A stretch of 64,000 nt of DNA, taken from positions 49,688 through 113,687 of the forward strand of contig JARXAD010000002.1 of the NCBI GenBank assembly GCA_029866025.1, given 5' to 3'. Of this stretch, positions 3,019 to 53,041 are shown one piece after another (within the stretch, counting starts at the first letter, position 1; every line of letters starts with the position of its first letter). The stretch is from Vampirovibrionales bacterium (GTDB taxonomy: Bacteria > Cyanobacteriota > Vampirovibrionia > Vampirovibrionales > Vampirovibrionaceae). A program made the position numbers and the translations under genes. The notes under the pieces were generated by a model. The model had not been told where the DNA came from and made no database searches. It saw nothing but the letters and a program-made list of their open reading frames with translations.

Positions 3019-5511
<2,493 letters not shown>

Positions 5512-10065: not shown

Positions 10066-11037
10066 ATGTGTTTCCCTACATTTAGGATCCGTATTATGCG
10101 TATTTCTCATATGGCTACAGCTTTTTCGCCCAACTTTGGACAGCGACCAAAAACGGCCTCAAATATAGTCAATTCTACAGATCAACTATCCATTCGTTTT
10201 GGCTCTATACCTTTATCCACCTATATTAATCAGGTGCATGTTTCCATTGTAGAGGGTGATATTTCGCAGCAAAAAGTAGACGCTTGTGTGGTTCCTCAGC
10301 TACTCACCGGATTAAGGGGGGGGGGAGTCTCAGACGCGCTTTACTCTTCGGGAGCAAGAAATGGGGTAAAAGCGTATCAAAATAAAATTGAGACAGGCCA
10401 TACGATGCAATTGGGTGAAGCACTTTGTTGTGAGTCAGGTGGAGGTAATTCAAAGTACTTGATTCATATTGCCACAGGGAAAGATTATTCGGGCTCTGTC
10501 GAAGATGCTGCTTTAGCGAAGCTAAAAGCCCCTACTATTTATAAAAATCCTAATCAAACAGTGGAAAAATATGCTGATATTGCGTTTATTGCCGTTAAGG
10601 AAGGCGTGAAAAACGCACTTGTTCAGGCAGAACGTAAGGGTTTAAGCTCTGTGGCCATTCCCCATATGGCTATCTTCAATTCATTGTTAGAAGTTCAGGC
10701 AGCCGAAGCCACGTTAGGAGGCATTGAAGAATACTCCAAAACAAGTAAAAACCCAGTAACAGTGAAAATTATTGCCTATCAAGATAAAGATAACGCTACC
10801 AAAAATGCTTACCGTGATGTAATACAGACTAAATCGTATGAGAATCCCTTTTGCCCCGTGGGCCTTACCGTTGGAAATTCCTTTGCGACAATGGAGCATA
10901 GGGTTAGAGGCGATAAATTTTTACCACCCATCGCTAAAGCCTTTAAAAAATATTATGCTACAAACGAGGGCTCTACCGATCGCAAATTAAAGGAGCTTAC
11001 CTATCAAACCTTATCTCTGGAAAAGAAAATTGGCTAA
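10066..11037 (+). CDS. Macro (ADP-ribose-binding / deacetylase) domain protein with an extra C-terminal region.
   Basis: VDACVVPQ and GGGVSDALY..G reflect macrodomain-like glycine-rich loops. GC is about 42%. A G10 homopolymer sits inside the coding region. The C-terminus contains GNSFAT, shared with two other ORFs. Confidence 0.5.
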   Translation: MCFPTFRIRIMRISHMATAFSPNFGQRPKTASNIVNSTDQLSIRFGSIPLSTYINQVHVSIVEGDISQQKVDACVVPQLLTGLRGGGVSDALYSSGARNGVKAYQNKIETGHTMQLGEALCCESGGGNSKYLIHIATGKDYSGSVEDAALAKLKAPTIYKNPNQTVEKYADIAFIAVKEGVKNALVQAERKGLSSVAIPHMAIFNSLLEVQAAEATLGGIEEYSKTSKNPVTVKIIAYQDKDNATKNAYRDVIQTKSYENPFCPVGLTVGNSFATMEHRVRGDKFLPPIAKAFKKYYATNEGSTDRKLKELTYQTLSLEKKIG

Positions 11038-34602: not shown

Positions 34603-35046
34603 ATGTCCGTTGCCTTTGGTCACACTGCCCCCCCCCACGCGTTAGCCCCAAAATTTGGCGCTTTGCTTCTTGCTGCTTCAAACCCAACGCTAAATCAAAA
34701 AGCTGTTAAAGGTCAGCAGTTTGAATTTGATGAGTTAGAAACACACTTGGCTAACGTGCCAAAGACGGATAGTTTTATAGTTGAGTGCGGCAACGACCGC
34801 AATCCCAATAATTACCGGATTCATATTTATTCATTCCCACTAAAACACCTTGAGAAGAAAGAGGGTTCCGAAGCAATTACTAAAAAGTTTCCACCGTCTG
34901 TTTGGTACAATTGGCAAAAGACGGTGATTGTACCCGCAGCAGAATTACTGACAAAGAAAACCAAAGACGCACTTACTGCAATTTTAACCAAAATGGCTAG
35001 CTTGCAATACACGGTTGATGACCTTGATGAAATCACATTAACCTAA
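34603..35046 (+). CDS. Hypothetical 147-aa protein, AT-rich, with a C9 tract in codons 9-12.
   Basis: ORF only; no motif recognised. Confidence 0.35.
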   Translation: MSVAFGHTAPPHALAPKFGALLLAASNPTLNQKAVKGQQFEFDELETHLANVPKTDSFIVECGNDRNPNNYRIHIYSFPLKHLEKKEGSEAITKKFPPSVWYNWQKTVIVPAAELLTKKTKDALTAILTKMASLQYTVDDLDEITLT

Positions 35047-41209: not shown

Positions 41210-42403
41210 TTGATGATGCCCACTGCCACCCACAATAAACTCTCTTTTATTGCCGATGAATTGCAGGCCCTCAAAGATCAGCATTTGTATCAATCGTTGG
41301 TCACGGTGCAAGGCCCCCAAGGGCCAGAAATCACCCTGGATGGCCGCACAGTATTGAACTTTTCTGCCAACAACTACTTAGGCCTATGCACCCACCCCGC
41401 CTTAAAAGAAGCCGCCATTAAGGCCACTGAAAAATACGGCGTGGGCGCGGGGGCTGTGAGGACTATCATTGGCACGCTGGATATTCACCAAGAGCTGGAA
41501 ATAGCCCTAGCCAAATTTAAGCACTGCGAAGCCACCATGGTCTTTCAATCGGGCTTTACCGCCAACGCAGGCGCCATTAACAGTTTATTGAACGAAGAAG
41601 ACTATACCCTCAGCGATTCGCTGAATCACGCCAGCATTATTGATGCCGTGCGCTTGAACAAAGCCAAAAAAGGTGTGTATTTACACAGCGATATGGCCGA
41701 CTTGGAAGCCAAACTCAAAGACGCCCAAGGCTTTCGCCATCGGTTGGTGGTCACGGATGGCGTGTTTTCCATGGATGGGGATGTGGCCAAACTGCCGGAT
41801 ATTGCCGACTTGTGTGACCAATACAACGCCTTGCTAATGGTAGATGATGCCCACGGCAGCGGCGTGTTTGGCGAGCATGGCGAAGGCACGGTAGCCCACT
41901 TTGGCCTGTGCGACCGGGTGGATTTGGTGGTGGGGACGTTATCCAAGGCGTTGGGCAGTATGGGTGGCTATGTGGCCAGCACCCAAGCCATGCGCGATTT
42001 GATGGTGAATCGTGCGCGCCCATTGTTGTTTAGCACCCCCCACCCCCCCAGCGTGGCAGCCAGCGCCTTAGCGGCGGTGAACTTGCTGATAACCGACAAC
42101 AGCTTGGTCAAACAGTTGTGGGACAACCGCAACTACTTTAAAGCCGAAATGAAACGCCTCGGCTACACCATTACCAGCGATTCGCCTATTTTGCCCGTGA
42201 TTGTGGGGGAAAGCGAACGGGCACAGTTGCTTTCCAAGCGATTGCTGGACGAAGGCGTGTTTGCCCGAGCCATTGTCTTCCCCACCGTGGCTAAAGATAA
42301 AGCCCGTGTGCGCCTGATGATGAGCGCCGCCTTTACCCGTGAACAGCTGGACCGCGGCCTTGCTGCTTTTGCCAAGCTGGGTAAAGAACTTTCTTTGGTT
42401 TAA
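41210..42403 (+). CDS. Class II aminotransferase-family acyltransferase: glycine C-acetyltransferase (Kbl) / 8-amino-7-oxononanoate synthase family.
   Basis: PLP-lysine region GTLSKALGSMGGY and DDAHGSGVFG. The 397-aa length favours Kbl. Confidence 0.75.
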   Translation: MMMPTATHNKLSFIADELQALKDQHLYQSLVTVQGPQGPEITLDGRTVLNFSANNYLGLCTHPALKEAAIKATEKYGVGAGAVRTIIGTLDIHQELEIALAKFKHCEATMVFQSGFTANAGAINSLLNEEDYTLSDSLNHASIIDAVRLNKAKKGVYLHSDMADLEAKLKDAQGFRHRLVVTDGVFSMDGDVAKLPDIADLCDQYNALLMVDDAHGSGVFGEHGEGTVAHFGLCDRVDLVVGTLSKALGSMGGYVASTQAMRDLMVNRARPLLFSTPHPPSVAASALAAVNLLITDNSLVKQLWDNRNYFKAEMKRLGYTITSDSPILPVIVGESERAQLLSKRLLDEGVFARAIVFPTVAKDKARVRLMMSAAFTREQLDRGLAAFAKLGKELSLV

Positions 42404-46180: not shown

Positions 46181-47209
46181 TTAAGGAGCGACTGGCATTT
46201 CTGCCAAGGCCACTTTGGGGTTACCTACTTTGTTGGTCAGCTCGCCCAGCTTATCAATGGCCAGCGTCATGGTATCGCCGGGTTGAATCCAGCGGTCCAA
46301 CTCCAGCCCGCAACCACGACCCACGGTGCCGCTGCCAAAAATATCGCCCGGTTGCAGCCATTCATCTTTACTGGCGTGGGCTATCATTTGTTCAAAGCGC
46401 CAGTGAATAGTGCCACTGTGGCCATCGCTCCAACGCTCGCCGTTAATGTCAGCCGTCATGCGCAAATCGTAGGCATCGCCCACCTCATCGGGGGTCACTA
46501 GCCACGGTCCAATAATAGTGGCAAAATCCTTGGCTTTGGCGGGGCCGAGACGGCACAGCATCTCTTGGCGTTGAATATCCCGTGCGCTTACGTCGTTAAT
46601 AATGCAATAGCCGGCAATGTAGTCTGTGGCTTGGTTTTCTGGAATATTCATACCCGCTTTGCCAATAATGCAGCCCAGTTCCAGCTCGTAATCCAGCCTT
46701 TTGGTGTAGCTGGGCCATGGCGCTTCCACATTAGGGCCAATAACGCTGTTGGGATTACCCTTGTAATACACAGGCAGCTCAAACCACGGGTCTGGAATGG
46801 GCTCTTTGCGACGGGCAAAGCCGTTGCGCACGTGTTCTTCAAAGGCGTAAAAATCACGAAAGCTGGTAGGGTTGGGCAAGGGCGCTTGAAGGGTCACCTC
46901 AGCATGGGCAAACAGCAGGCGGGCATTATTGAGACCCAAGACAGGGTTGGCCAAATCCCCCAGCTCCCCCATTTTGTAAAACTCTAGCATCAGGCGGGCT
47001 TGGCCCATGGCCCGATTGCCCTGCTGCAACAACCCCAACACGGTACTGGGTAGCAACACATTGGCCACCGCTTGAGGCTGAGGGTCGCCTTGCTGATGCA
47101 AGTACCACGCATAGGCGGCGTTCAGGTCTAGCACCACATCGCCCGCCAGGGCACCGGCCCGATCAAACCAGCCCAAGGGGGTTTGTATGCGAAAAGTTAC
47201 AAGTTTCAT
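46181..47209 (-). CDS. Fumarylacetoacetate hydrolase (FAH)-family protein.
   Basis: N-terminal MKLVTFR...G then the FAH fold. In a genome that also has HPPD, a role in tyrosine catabolism is plausible. Confidence 0.65.
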   Translation of the reverse strand: MKLVTFRIQTPLGWFDRAGALAGDVVLDLNAAYAWYLHQQGDPQPQAVANVLLPSTVLGLLQQGNRAMGQARLMLEFYKMGELGDLANPVLGLNNARLLFAHAEVTLQAPLPNPTSFRDFYAFEEHVRNGFARRKEPIPDPWFELPVYYKGNPNSVIGPNVEAPWPSYTKRLDYELELGCIIGKAGMNIPENQATDYIAGYCIINDVSARDIQRQEMLCRLGPAKAKDFATIIGPWLVTPDEVGDAYDLRMTADINGERWSDGHSGTIHWRFEQMIAHASKDEWLQPGDIFGSGTVGRGCGLELDRWIQPGDTMTLAIDKLGELTNKVGNPKVALAEMPVAP

Positions 47210-47242
47210 ACAGGGTATTATAGTCCTAGGGGGTTGGTTGCA

Positions 47243-47923
47243 CTAGTCAACAACTTGCCTTTCAGAGACATAGCCTTCAGGCAAATTGTTTAAATCCAAC
47301 TCGTTTTTTTGGATATACAACAGTTTTTCTGGTCCCCAATAAAGGTTTCCCTTTTCTTTAATTTTAAAATAACTTTCATTTTTGCTTATTCCGTTAAGAG
47401 CAGGGACAAAGAGAAAATCGTTGGTTGAAGGACAGCCTCTCCCATTAAGATCACAAGCATCTTTATGAGCATCTATCATAGAAAACATTTCTTCTAATAA
47501 TGCTCGGTTGGTAGTTAATGTTAATATACCGGAATGATTATTTTTATGTTCTAGAAGAATTTTATAATAGCCACTACTGGAAGCAGCGGCCTTTTCATCA
47601 TCATAAAATCTATGAAGCAAACTTCCTTGAGGCGAAGAGGTATAGATTACATGTGTGTACTTCCCACTCTCAGAGGTATTTTTTACAGAGCTGGCTTGGC
47701 TAACCTTTTGGCACGCATAACCAAAGGTTTTACACAGGCCCTCTAACCATTGGTTCACATTCGGTTCGGTATCATTATTTTGTTGGGCAAATGTATCCGT
47801 GTCAAAGTCAAAGGCCTCATTTGTCGGGCGAAAGCCTAACAGTTGCTGAAAACCACGAAATTCATCCCCCCCCCCCCGATTGGCTGGAGCAATGTGATAC
47901 TGGGTGCCAAATTGAATGTTCAT
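47243..47923 (-). CDS. Hypothetical 226-aa protein, AT-rich, with a G12 tract in codons 16-20.
   Basis: ORF only. The GGDEF-like string is the translation of the homopolymer, not a cyclase motif. Confidence 0.35.
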   Translation of the reverse strand: MNIQFGTQYHIAPANRGGGDEFRGFQQLLGFRPTNEAFDFDTDTFAQQNNDTEPNVNQWLEGLCKTFGYACQKVSQASSVKNTSESGKYTHVIYTSSPQGSLLHRFYDDEKAAASSSGYYKILLEHKNNHSGILTLTTNRALLEEMFSMIDAHKDACDLNGRGCPSTNDFLFVPALNGISKNESYFKIKEKGNLYWGPEKLLYIQKNELDLNNLPEGYVSERQVVD

Positions 47924-48047
47924 GACAAGGTTTCCTTTAGTAAAGGTGTAAAGCTATGTTAGCCATACAAAAGGCCCTCAAGGCCCCTTGGTGCTAGCTT
48001 ATGGGATAATAAGCGGACTTTCGTTACATTTGTTAGGAAACCACGCC

Positions 48048-49875: not shown

Positions 49876-50607
49876 CTACGGGGCAGCCACCGGTGTTTTG
49901 GGTCCTGTGGTTACCGTGTTAGTCACGGTTGTGGGGGCAGCACTCTTAGTTTGCAATGAGGGGTGCAACGAAGACGACCCCGTGGCTACCGGCGTTTCTC
50001 CAAAGGGGTTTGGCTTAGGCGCATTTGAAGCGGTCGAAGTCGTTGCGGCGGCAGCAGTGACAGGGGCTTTGAGCGCAGTTTGGACCAGGGTTGTCTGTGG
50101 CGCAGTTACAACAGCAGGTTGAGACGTTCCCGTCGGTGTCGTAGCACCCTCGGTTGTTGATGAAGCGGCCACGGTTGTCACCTCTTCTAGTGACGTTGTG
50201 GTGACAGCACCAGGCGGTTCTGAGGTTTCGGAGGCTACAGGAGTTTTCATACGCATCACCGGAATATTGGCCACCAAAGCAATGGTATTGGATTCCGTCT
50301 CTAAATTCAGTTCCAAGGCTTCCCGGTCAATATCCACGTATTTGGAAATGACCTGCACCAGCTCATCCCGCATTTTTGAAAGTACATCGGGGGAAATTTG
50401 AGTGCGGTCATGCATTAACACAAGCTTTAAGCGATTATAGGCGTCATTTTTTGAACCATCACCGCCCTGCTTGCCACTGTTGCCACCTTGCTTAGATCCA
50501 GACCCATTATTAGACTGGCTGCCATTGCGACCAAACGCCGCGCTGTAAGGGCGAGACGATTCTTTACCGTCCAGCTCTAGGTTAAACAATTTACTCAGCC
50601 AGCCCAT
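49876..50607 (-). CDS. minE: Cell division topological specificity factor MinE with a ~150-aa T/A/P-rich C-terminal extension.
   Basis: MGWLSKLFN membrane-targeting start and RLKLVLMHDRTQISPDVLSKMRDELVQVISKYVDID, which aligns with the MinE core. The core is followed by low-complexity TTxT/AAP sequence up to the stop. Confidence 0.8.
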   Translation of the reverse strand: MGWLSKLFNLELDGKESSRPYSAAFGRNGSQSNNGSGSKQGGNSGKQGGDGSKNDAYNRLKLVLMHDRTQISPDVLSKMRDELVQVISKYVDIDREALELNLETESNTIALVANIPVMRMKTPVASETSEPPGAVTTTSLEEVTTVAASSTTEGATTPTGTSQPAVVTAPQTTLVQTALKAPVTAAAATTSTASNAPKPNPFGETPVATGSSSLHPSLQTKSAAPTTVTNTVTTGPKTPVAAP

Positions 50608-50685
50608 GGCCCAACTCCTTATATCCGTAAACGGTTGCAATCAACACAGCAGGGCACTTTGGCCATTGGCTGCTAAACAATACTC

Positions 50686-51768
50686 TTAAAAAGCAGAGAC
50701 CTTGGATGAGCGAAACAGATTTTTGATGCGCTCAAAAATGCCTTGAGGCTCTTCCAAGTTCAAAAAGGGCACATCTTCGCCTGCCACACGACGAGCAATG
50801 TTACGATACGCCTGCCCCGCTACGGATTGTTCATCCAGTACAATAGGCTCACCCCGATTGGTGCTTACAATAATGGAAGGATCTTCTGGCACCACGCCCA
50901 ATAGTTTAATGGAAAGAATTTCCAACACATCATCAATGTCCATCATGTCGTGAGACCGAACCATAGCCGGCCGCATGCGGTTGATAATGAGCTTGTAATG
51001 CTTTACATTTTCGCGGGTTTCTAGCAAACCGATAATACGATCCGCATCGCGAATGGACGACATCTCAGGGTTCACCACCACAATGGCTTCATCGGCAGCC
51101 GTCACAGCATTTTGAAAACCTTGCTCAATGCCAGCAGGGCTATCGATAATAATAAAGTCCACTTTTTTACGCAGTTGACCAATGAGATCCTGCATTTTTT
51201 CTTCGTCTAACGCGCTTTTATCGCGAGTTTGAGCGGCTGCTAGCAGGCTTAAATTAGGCATGCGTTTGTCTTTAACCATGGCTTGATTCAGCTTACAGCG
51301 GCCTTCAATCACATCAATCAGGTTGTAAACAATGCGATTTTCCAACCCCATCAAGATATCCAAGTTACGCAAACCAATGTCAGTATCCACCAACACCACC
51401 GAATACCCCAAACGTGCCAGACCGGTACCCACGTTAGCCGACGCCGTTGTTTTACCCACACCGCCTTTACCGGAGGTCACGACAATCACACGCCCTTCAC
51501 CGGGCTCACGGTCAGCTTTGGGAGCAGTCTTCTCTGACGAAGACGTACTGGATGCAATAGACACCACGTTGGAAAGAGCATCGGGCGTCTCGGACGTAAT
51601 ATCAACCAAGGGTGTCTCACGAGAATCGATGGAAGGCTCCAATACAGAATCGGGTGCATCAGGCGAAGTGGCCATAACAGAAGTGTCCTTAAGGGTGTCC
51701 CCAGCGGTAATAGAAGAATCTACCGTGGGGGTAGCGTTTTCTGGAGTAGAGTGAGCCATAACGAACAT
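50686..51768 (-). CDS. minD: Septum site-determining ATPase MinD. The ORF track gives 360 aa; the canonical core is 267 aa from GTG 51489.
   Basis: VIVVTSGKGGVGKTT deviant Walker A, DTDIGLRNLD, and the C-terminal amphipathic helix. Either the 93-aa S/T/P-rich N-terminal extension is real or the start is GTG at 51489. Confidence 0.9.
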   Translation of the reverse strand: MFVMAHSTPENATPTVDSSITAGDTLKDTSVMATSPDAPDSVLEPSIDSRETPLVDITSETPDALSNVVSIASSTSSSEKTAPKADREPGEGRVIVVTSGKGGVGKTTASANVGTGLARLGYSVVLVDTDIGLRNLDILMGLENRIVYNLIDVIEGRCKLNQAMVKDKRMPNLSLLAAAQTRDKSALDEEKMQDLIGQLRKKVDFIIIDSPAGIEQGFQNAVTAADEAIVVVNPEMSSIRDADRIIGLLETRENVKHYKLIINRMRPAMVRSHDMMDIDDVLEILSIKLLGVVPEDPSIIVSTNRGEPIVLDEQSVAGQAYRNIARRVAGEDVPFLNLEEPQGIFERIKNLFRSSKVSAF

Positions 51769-51829
51769 CCTGTGTAAAAAGTGTTACTTCAAAAATCAAT
51801 TATCCACGTTGGTAAAAGGTCGGTTACCG

Positions 51830-53041
51830 CTATACAAAATCAATGGAATGCCCTGGGTTTAGATCGGCCTGAATCCGAATTTCGCCATCCACCATGCGTG
51901 CAAACTCAGGATGCCAAGCCCGATCCACAGGGGACTCTGGCTTATGGTTACTGGTTCTGTCCGGACGGCGCGCAATGGTAGAACCAATACGCAACTGAAC
52001 GGCTCGTAGCAGCAAGGCCCGAATACTGGCCCACTGCTGAGGCGCATCGCCAGCTTTTAGGGGGGCTCCGGCATGGGCAACACCGCGCAATTCACCCCAC
52101 ACCACAATGTGGCCACGAGCAATAATTTCACTGCCGCTGTGCACATCTCCCATGACCAACAAGTGGCCTTCAGACACCACCGTCTGTCCTGAGCGCAACG
52201 TCCCCGTTACCAGACGAGTGGGCATGGCCTCGGCGCCTGTTGCCGGCACCGGAACCAATGTGTCCGCCGCCGTGGCTTGATAATGAGTGACGGTTGGCGC
52301 CTCTAAAAACGCCGGCACCGTTACCAATGAGGGATCGGGTTTTGACGCAGCAGTCTCGCCAAGGCTTTCAACCGTCATACGCTCTGACAATGATTTAGGC
52401 ACATCACTGTCCAACGATACCAATGGCATTGGGTCCACGGAAGACGTTGAATCCACAACATCCGTTATGTTTTCAAGAAGCATTGCCGTGGTTTGGAGCG
52501 ACGATAAACCTTCTAGTGTTTCAATTGATGACAAGATGGGTGTTTCTTCAGCAGCTGTTCGCTCTGTTACACTTGGAAGCCTCTCTACAACAGAAGGCTC
52601 AACCAAAGAGAAGAGAGGCTCTGGCGGAGCAACCAAAGCGGTCGCCAAGGGAGAAGCCGCATAACCATCGGAGGACAAGGCTTCCTCATTCGCCGGCGGG
52701 TATTCTTTTACTCCCAAACCACAACTAAGGGCTGCCTGCTGGGTTTGAGACAAGCGCGCATACACCATAGTCACGCTGAGACCTTGCTGGCGCAACGTTT
52801 CTAACAACTTACTCAGCATTTTTCCCGTCAGCACCAACGACCCACAGTCTAATGCCACCTGCGTTGTTTCTAAACTTTGCGATGGGTGCTGCTTTAGCCA
52901 GGCAGCTAATAAGCGCTGAGAATCAGAAAAACTAAGAGCCGAAGAAATATCCACAAACAAGGGTGGTAGTGCCAAGACAGGCACTGGCAAAGAGGGCAAT
53001 GAGGTAGAAAGCGTGGCCGTAGGCAAAAGTATGGATTCCAT
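51830..53041 (-). CDS. minC: Septum site-determining protein MinC with an expanded ~180-aa low-complexity interdomain linker.
   Basis: N-domain VALDCGSLVLTGKMLSKLLETLRQQGLSV. C-terminal beta-helix GTLRSGQTVVSEGHLLVMGDVHSGSEIIARGHIVVWGELRGVAHAG. Confidence 0.85.
   Translation of the reverse strand: MESILLPTATLSTSLPSLPVPVLALPPLFVDISSALSFSDSQRLLAAWLKQHPSQSLETTQVALDCGSLVLTGKMLSKLLETLRQQGLSVTMVYARLSQTQQAALSCGLGVKEYPPANEEALSSDGYAASPLATALVAPPEPLFSLVEPSVVERLPSVTERTAAEETPILSSIETLEGLSSLQTTAMLLENITDVVDSTSSVDPMPLVSLDSDVPKSLSERMTVESLGETAASKPDPSLVTVPAFLEAPTVTHYQATAADTLVPVPATGAEAMPTRLVTGTLRSGQTVVSEGHLLVMGDVHSGSEIIARGHIVVWGELRGVAHAGAPLKAGDAPQQWASIRALLLRAVQLRIGSTIARRPDRTSNHKPESPVDRAWHPEFARMVDGEIRIQADLNPGHSIDFV

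Follow-up and report, generated by a model that had tools for sequence, protein, structure and literature searches.

Does a run of twelve guanines near the 5' end of a small accessory gene act as a switch for that gene, or is it a place where the DNA slips to no purpose? The question is raised by a gene in a metagenome-assembled genome (MAG) of the Vampirovibrionales, whose 226-aa product (MDH4378726.1) is annotated as 'hypothetical protein' and which lies within the 64-kb stretch of DNA that we analysed, referred to here as the window. A sequence-only reading of the same DNA had called the run a strong candidate for slipped-strand phase variation. Our analysis shows that the run is a genuine and evolutionarily recent homopolymer, of a kind prone to slippage, and that it lies in the 5' coding part of an inserted accessory gene (Table 1).

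Table 1. Coordinates, in the window, of the tract, its gene and neighbourhood, and the three other long G:C runs
Feature	Position	Strand	Remarks
G12 homopolymer (C12 on +)	47866..47877	-	from position 2 of codon 16 to position 1 of codon 20, R-G-G-G-D
226-aa accessory gene MDH4378726.1, QE263_02315	47243..47923	-	GC 0.39; ATG start; homologues by HMMER
Shine-Dalgarno-like AAGGAA	47932..47937	-	8 nt before ATG 47923
Lineage-specific insertion, approximate extent	47210..47923	-	gene plus 33-nt tail before FAH
FAH-family gene	46181..47209	-	Pfam FAA_hydrolase, E 1e-58; directly downstream, co-directional
Divergent intergenic spacer, 124 nt	47924..48047	.	accessory gene to CoA-transferase (ATG 48048); loose alignment with relatives' spacer
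C11, gyrB codons 7-11 (ACC CCC CCC CCC TCC)	3038..3048	+	gene 3019..5511
G10, codons 84-87 of macro-domain gene	10316..10325	+	gene 10066..11037
C9, codons 9-12 of 147-aa hypothetical gene	34628..34636	+	gene 34603..35046

The G12 run within a translated gene

On the forward strand the tract is a C12 at exactly 47866-47877 (...attcat CCCCCCCCCCCC gattgg...), which corresponds to G12 on the reverse, coding strand. Counted from the ATG at 47923, codon 16 is CGG (47878-47876), codons 17 to 19 are GGG and codon 20 is GAT (47866-47864), and this reading, CGG GGG GGG GGG GAT, agrees with the earlier placement of the run in codons 16-20. It is likewise correct that no longer homopolymer exists in the window, the next being C11 at 3038, G10 at 10316 and C9 at 34628. 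Extrapolation from run lengths 3-7 gives an expectation of 0.26 G or C runs of at least 9 in 64 kb and of 0.003 for runs of at least 12, against four (an excess of about 15-fold) and one observed, respectively. The observed G9 count was reached by none of 100 dinucleotide-preserving shuffles, and in 1.53 Mb of unrelated bacterial loci the longest runs were two of 9. Codon usage was examined as well: GGG is a rare codon that accounts for only 19% of glycine codons, the tract places three of them in a gene of 39% GC, and GGG GGG GGG is used by none of the ten other tri-glycine stretches found there outside the tract genes. A G12 run is highly improbable by chance and is more than a chance occurrence here. 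At this length it also exceeds the hypermutability threshold of G:C mononucleotides, which lies at about 7-8 or more.

The gene that carries the tract is a 681-nt ORF with 39% GC overall, compared with 52-55% for its neighbours, and 35% GC at third codon positions, so that its description as AT-rich holds. An exact-protein lookup with the 226-aa sequence was empty and a word-indexed search of 5.8 billion proteins matched MDH4378726.1 to itself only, and remote relatives emerged when 1.84 billion cluster representatives were scanned in full with HMMER. One of them, P0245 (230 aa, E 1.5e-11), matches the whole 226-230-aa architecture of the tract gene and aligns from residue 1 to about residue 108, with 36% identity over residues 1-108 (MNIQFGTQYHIAPAN... 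in the N-terminal alignment versus MLVQFGAQYRILSN...). The alignment crosses the position of the tract to within one residue, and both flanks are conserved. Because P0245 aligns from M1 and a Shine-Dalgarno-like sequence stands at a distance of 8 nt, the tract must lie within translated sequence, 15 codons after the start; judged by this comparison, the ORF is a real gene whose start codon is validated by its homologue. The context of the AAGGAA mirrors the AGGAAACC-N5-ATG of the divergent CoA-transferase gene, the two forming an inverted repeat.

Homopolymers are error-prone on several sequencing platforms and our sequence comes from one assembly of a metagenome-assembled genome, and it might be suspected that the run, or its exact length, is an artefact of sequencing or assembly, either a homopolymer miscall or a poly-G artefact. 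We consider this very improbable, since all four tracts of at least 9 are in frame, which would be about 1% likely if their lengths were random, since the tract is far from being terminal, in the interior of a contig of 486,615 bp, and since the region aligns with its homologue as described above. Poly-G artefacts occur at the ends of reads or contigs, and runs within genes, on one strand as well as the other, are not what they would produce.

The translation of the tract contains the literal string GGGDEF, which had been attributed to the run itself and not to a diguanylate cyclase, and our searches bear this out. A GGDEF diguanylate cyclase (PF00990) can be dismissed, with no Pfam match even at E 0.1, and P0245 reads 'AREDF' at the same place. 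Residues 18-22, G-G-D-E-F, result from the tract followed by GAT GAA TTT and fall in a region of low confidence in the predicted structure. Whereas GGDEF cyclases possess a domain of about 160 aa around GG[DE]EF, the tract gene has only the literal G-G-D-E-F. This string, and the location of the tract less than 60 nt from the start codon, could still be taken to indicate a role that involves no frameshifting, whether as a Gly3 linker or GGDEF-like motif, through mRNA or G-quadruplex structure, or as a spacer in the CoA-transferase promoter. Such a role is hardly credible: the GGDEF domain is missing, P0245 does without the glycine run, shuffled sequences fold as well as the 191 nt of the 5' region (z = -0.13), which has no Rfam match, so that an RNA element around the tract is rejected, and the tract is about 170 nt from the CoA-transferase start. 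Since relatives fit that promoter in 85-104 nt, the promoter-spacer role is rejected. A lone G12 run is not known to fold into a canonical quadruplex of three tetrads.

An inserted gene and its protein family

The C-terminal part of the protein is shared with a protein family, its last ~105 residues being common to six proteins of ~350 aa and to one of 131 aa. The motifs common to this family (PQGNLFH, ATLEHAFSMIDxLRDACDLxG and W.I.EK..L.W) are recognizable in the tract protein as PQGxLxH ... FSMIDxxKDACDLxG ... W. An AF2 model built on an 8-sequence alignment predicts an alpha/beta domain for residues ~88-226, with pLDDT of ~80-90, and its prediction for the N-terminal ~87 aa has low confidence. 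The ~350-aa proteins differ from the tract protein in having an N-terminus with a lipobox or TM segment and a coiled coil, only the last ~105 aa being common to both. Unlike the 226-aa gene, no member of the family (P0245; P0246, P0249-P0253) has a G tract at the equivalent site. Searches of the 226-aa protein against Pfam, NCBIfam, PHROG and PADLOC gave no match, a PDB profile search gave a best value of only E 0.38, and the protein displays no signal peptide or known domain and no surface, defence or host-interaction signature. The window contains no paralogue of the gene. Distant relatives of the C-terminal domain, the lipoprotein-like ~350-aa proteins, occur in a nine-gene co-directional operon (L089, 22-10964 of JGI Ga0163151_10004633, and also L088) that encodes proteins without Pfam families, among them one of 965 aa with weak likeness to Hsp70/actin and one of 699 aa of the OmpA family. 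PADLOC and NCBIfam searches of this operon returned no match that would clarify its function; it looks like an uncharacterised envelope-associated system.

The gene lies 33 nt upstream of the FAH-family gene and is co-directional with it, in keeping with the earlier remark that the two adjoin. In the window the start codons of the CoA-transferase and FAH genes (48048 and 47209) are 838 nt apart. In two relatives the same genes are much closer: in a related Vampirovibrionales MAG (L083, GCA_046328025.1; 81% aa identity in FAH) they are divergent and 85 nt apart, and in a closer relative represented by a Logan contig (L084, 84% nt identity) the distance is ~104 nt. Comparison of these spacings shows that the accessory gene is a lineage-specific insertion of ~735-755 nt. 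Among the GTDB representative genomes there was no close relative (best FAH match 56%), the searched collections held no conspecific assembly, their closest relatives being ~85% nt identical, and a scan of JGI metagenomes for tract-length variants, in which both flanks had to be present with N{8,16} separating them, turned up none.

A phage, plasmid or viral origin of the gene was considered and rejected, there being no tblastn match in phage or plasmid collections or in IMG/VR and no PHROG match. No significant direct or inverted repeats flank the insertion, where only short repeats at chance level were seen, and no integrase was found there; with this and the missing phage or plasmid similarity, cargo of a mobile element or phage was also discarded.

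Both promoters, that of the accessory gene and that of the CoA-transferase, are presumably located in the 124-nt spacer; no strong sigma-70 consensus was seen on the reverse strand. This spacer aligns loosely with the ancestral one, and on this weak alignment the gene may have been inserted between the FAH gene and its expression signals. The FAH gene of the window has, in the region 47210-47245, lost the (G)AGGA-N7-ATG ribosome-binding site that is present in L081, L083 and L084, and a perfect TATAAT is found at 47217-47222 on the reverse strand, 7 nt before the FAH ATG. Loss of the ribosome-binding site and the proximity of the TATAAT to the ATG suggest either a leaderless transcript or read-through from the inserted gene, and FAH may thus be co-transcribed with the accessory gene or expressed from the TATAAT.

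The one full-length homologue also gives a direction to the history of the tract. At the corresponding position the P0245 gene reads AAT CCT TCA GCA AGG GAA GAT, with no homopolymer, from which it follows that the G12 tract is derived. The P0245 gene (L086, 2353-3045; Logan SRR26425193) is found between Tmemb_14 and agmatinase-like genes, a locus different from that of the tract gene, and the same sample holds a related FAH contig (L085). With 42% GC in a contig of 52.5% GC it is, like the tract gene, a low-GC single gene flanked by genes of housekeeping type. Its presence in this form at a different locus suggests that members of the gene family move as single-gene insertions.

Long G:C runs as a class

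The G12 tract is not isolated. For lengths 4-7 the run frequencies equal those in the relative L083; length 8 is not represented among the G or C runs of the window, and then follow single runs of 9, 10, 11 and 12, which indicates that the long runs form a separate class and are not the tail of a general bias. All four runs of at least 9 are inside ORFs and in frame. Codons 7-16 contain three of the four, for which p is ~ 0.001 if placement is taken as uniform, and runs of at least 9 are found in 3 of 6 low-GC ORFs and in 1 of 49 others (Fisher p = 0.003, in a sample of 64 kb). Each of the three low-GC tract genes stands singly, with housekeeping genes on either side. The macro-domain gene (41% GC) is inserted between the genes for CoA-transferase subunit B and PBP2; its G10 encodes the conserved 'GGG' motif of the protein (AGG GGG GGG GGA), and a change of one nucleotide in either direction would leave ~100 aa. 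The 147-aa orphan, flanked by the genes for PEPCK and glutamate dehydrogenase, has no family match and would be reduced to 13-35 aa by the same change. An interrupted run, C6-A-C7 (TPHPPS), occurs at 42036-42049 in a class I/II aminotransferase gene (41210..42403) and may be a stabilised tract or a proto-tract.

The fourth long run is in gyrB, and long tracts do not, in this window, avoid essential genes. The C11 forms part of an N-terminal extension of the product that an 89%-identical relative (L087) has as well (MSIAMTTPPASSGSS against a 15-residue counterpart). Since that relative encodes the same extension (MSIAMTTPPASS), the extension is translated, and a slip of one nucleotide in the C11 would inactivate an essential gene and be lethal. 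In L087 the same 11 nt read CACCTCCTGCC, so that the window's C11 arose through four substitutions, all to C, with the length unchanged. Two consequences follow from the presence of such a tract in gyrB: long G:C runs may come into being and be kept in this genome although they are not selected switches, so that a tract by itself is no proof of one; and the rate of slippage must be low enough for the cell to tolerate it.

These observations lend themselves to an account in which G12 is a non-adaptive mutational hot spot, which slips, which arose by chance or through a tendency of the lineage, and which is merely tolerated, or is a first step to pseudogenisation, with no selected role. Besides the gyrB tract, which is of the same class and was built by substitution, this account can draw on the fact that all of the tracts are in the ON state, on the dispensability of the gene in relatives, and on the general selection against long simple sequence repeats (SSRs) (PMC3315296), by which a young tract has perhaps not yet been purged. 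On the other hand, the association with low-GC accessory genes and the bias to the first ~16 codons are what selection for switching predicts and not what uniform mutation would give, and the window has no excess of runs of 4-8, as a general bias would produce. We regard the hot spot as doubtful, if well worth keeping in mind. An N-terminal bias of SSRs was proposed by Lin and Kussell as a signature of phase variation (PMC3315296), and the 5' bias of our tracts, together with their occurrence in low-GC genes, is the pattern that they proposed as a genomic signature.

Frameshift states and the comparison with poly-G contingency loci

Simulated changes of tract length show what slippage would do to the gene. 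Lengths of 9, 12 and 15 preserve a product of 225-227 aa; with 11 and 14 the translation ends in ...RGGG(G)MNFVVFSNC* at a TAG, giving 28-29 aa; and 10 and 13 lead to an immediate TGA and 19-20 aa. In the other frames, which have no long ORF, a stop is reached within 1-10 codons, which rules out alternative-frame coding or a programmed frameshift product, and the next in-frame ATG downstream of the tract is at residue 156 of 226. Because changes of one or two nucleotides yield stubs of 19-29 aa with no long alternative ORF, a change of one nucleotide is a clean null that can be reversed by the opposite slip. The placement of the repeat also fits switching, as it is inside the coding sequence, 5'-proximal and upstream of most of the coding information. 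The length found in the assembly is that of the ON state.

The mechanism that we propose is that of the simple-sequence 'contingency' switches of the poly-G type known in Campylobacter and Neisseria. Slipped-strand mispairing in replication would add or remove a G; the gene would be ON at lengths of 9, 12 and 15, which keep the frame, and OFF at 11 and 14 (TAG after 28-29 codons) or 10 and 13 (TGA). Since the change of length would be reversible, some cells of a population, though the smaller part, would at all times be in the opposite state. Judged on its sequence, the tract is somewhat more probably than otherwise a functioning stochastic ON/OFF switch of this kind. In mechanism it would be a standard example of an intragenic poly-G switch. 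On this reading slippage would occur at a useful rate, the gene would be expressed and switching would be selected for. The earlier designation of the tract as a strong candidate thus stands in its sequence expectations, namely the length of the run, its 5' placement, the 19-29-aa stubs and the low-GC accessory host, and is weakened by the C11 in essential gyrB and by all four tracts being in frame.

The known poly-G contingency loci have much in common with the G12 gene: they carry G8-G13 in an accessory reading frame within AT-rich DNA and are turned ON and OFF by frameshifts of one nucleotide (PMC3401435). A genome contains several such loci, whose rate of switching depends on the length of the tract (PMC3401435). 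Published rates per division are 1.6-4.1e-3 for G11-G12 tracts of C. jejuni; for G10-G12 of N. meningitidis, frequencies of 1-3e-5 are given for the wild type and of ~10^-3 for mutS mutants (PMC3401435). The host in our case is an uncultured member of the Vampirovibrionales, a non-photosynthetic cyanobacterial lineage, has a genome of ~50% GC and, unlike the known poly-G loci, has one of its tracts in an essential gene. A second point of comparison is provided by the poly-G/C 'phasome' loci of N. meningitidis and H. pylori, where mononucleotide G:C tracts likewise cluster towards the 5' ends of genes (PMC3315296, PMC3401435). Those loci are mostly surface, LOS and restriction-modification genes of host-adapted pathogens, whereas the tract genes described here encode a macro-domain protein, a 147-aa orphan and the uncharacterised 226-aa protein, in an environmental, probably predatory bacterium.

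Within the 64 kb, tracts exceed the number expected from composition and favour 5' ends and accessory genes. None of the four is in an OFF state, which counts against a switch, as do the missing promoter consensus and the missing surface, defence or host-interaction signature of the protein. More tentatively, the low-GC single-gene islands that carry 5' G:C runs of 9-12 nt (the 226-aa, macro-domain and 147-aa genes) could together form a small 'phasome' through which recently acquired accessory functions are expressed stochastically, with the gyrB tract as a spill-over of tract building into essential genes. They would then be the first simple-sequence contingency loci in the Melainabacteria/Vampirovibrionia; the literature that we searched had none linking Vampirovibrio or Melainabacteria with SSR phase variation. 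We hold this wider proposal to be possible, if short of probable.

If the tract does switch, a strategy of contingency loci that has so far been documented mainly in host-adapted pathogens would extend to an uncultured and probably predatory non-photosynthetic relative of the cyanobacteria. The 226-aa family and the macro-domain and 147-aa genes would then be expected to provide functions of fluctuating cost and benefit, for example in relation to prey, phage or competitors. If it does not, the cluster of long G:C runs, that of gyrB included, still calls for a mutational explanation. A switching tract would also be a ready-made marker of strain-level heterogeneity in metagenomes, and annotators should then expect some assemblies to show the 226-aa gene as a 'pseudogene'.

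Two other parts of the window deserve mention. Its lowest-GC ORF (36%), at 672-2408 on the reverse strand, adjoins gyrB and has no long tract; it encodes a 578-aa ATPase of the AAA_15/AAA_21 type (OLD/AbiEii-like) and looks like a defence-type island. In the minCDE cluster at 49876-53041 the proteins are unusual: MinC has 403 aa, MinD has an N-terminal extension of ~90 aa, and MinE reaches 254 aa with a long Pro/Thr/Ala-rich tail, the MinE of L083 having 204 aa.
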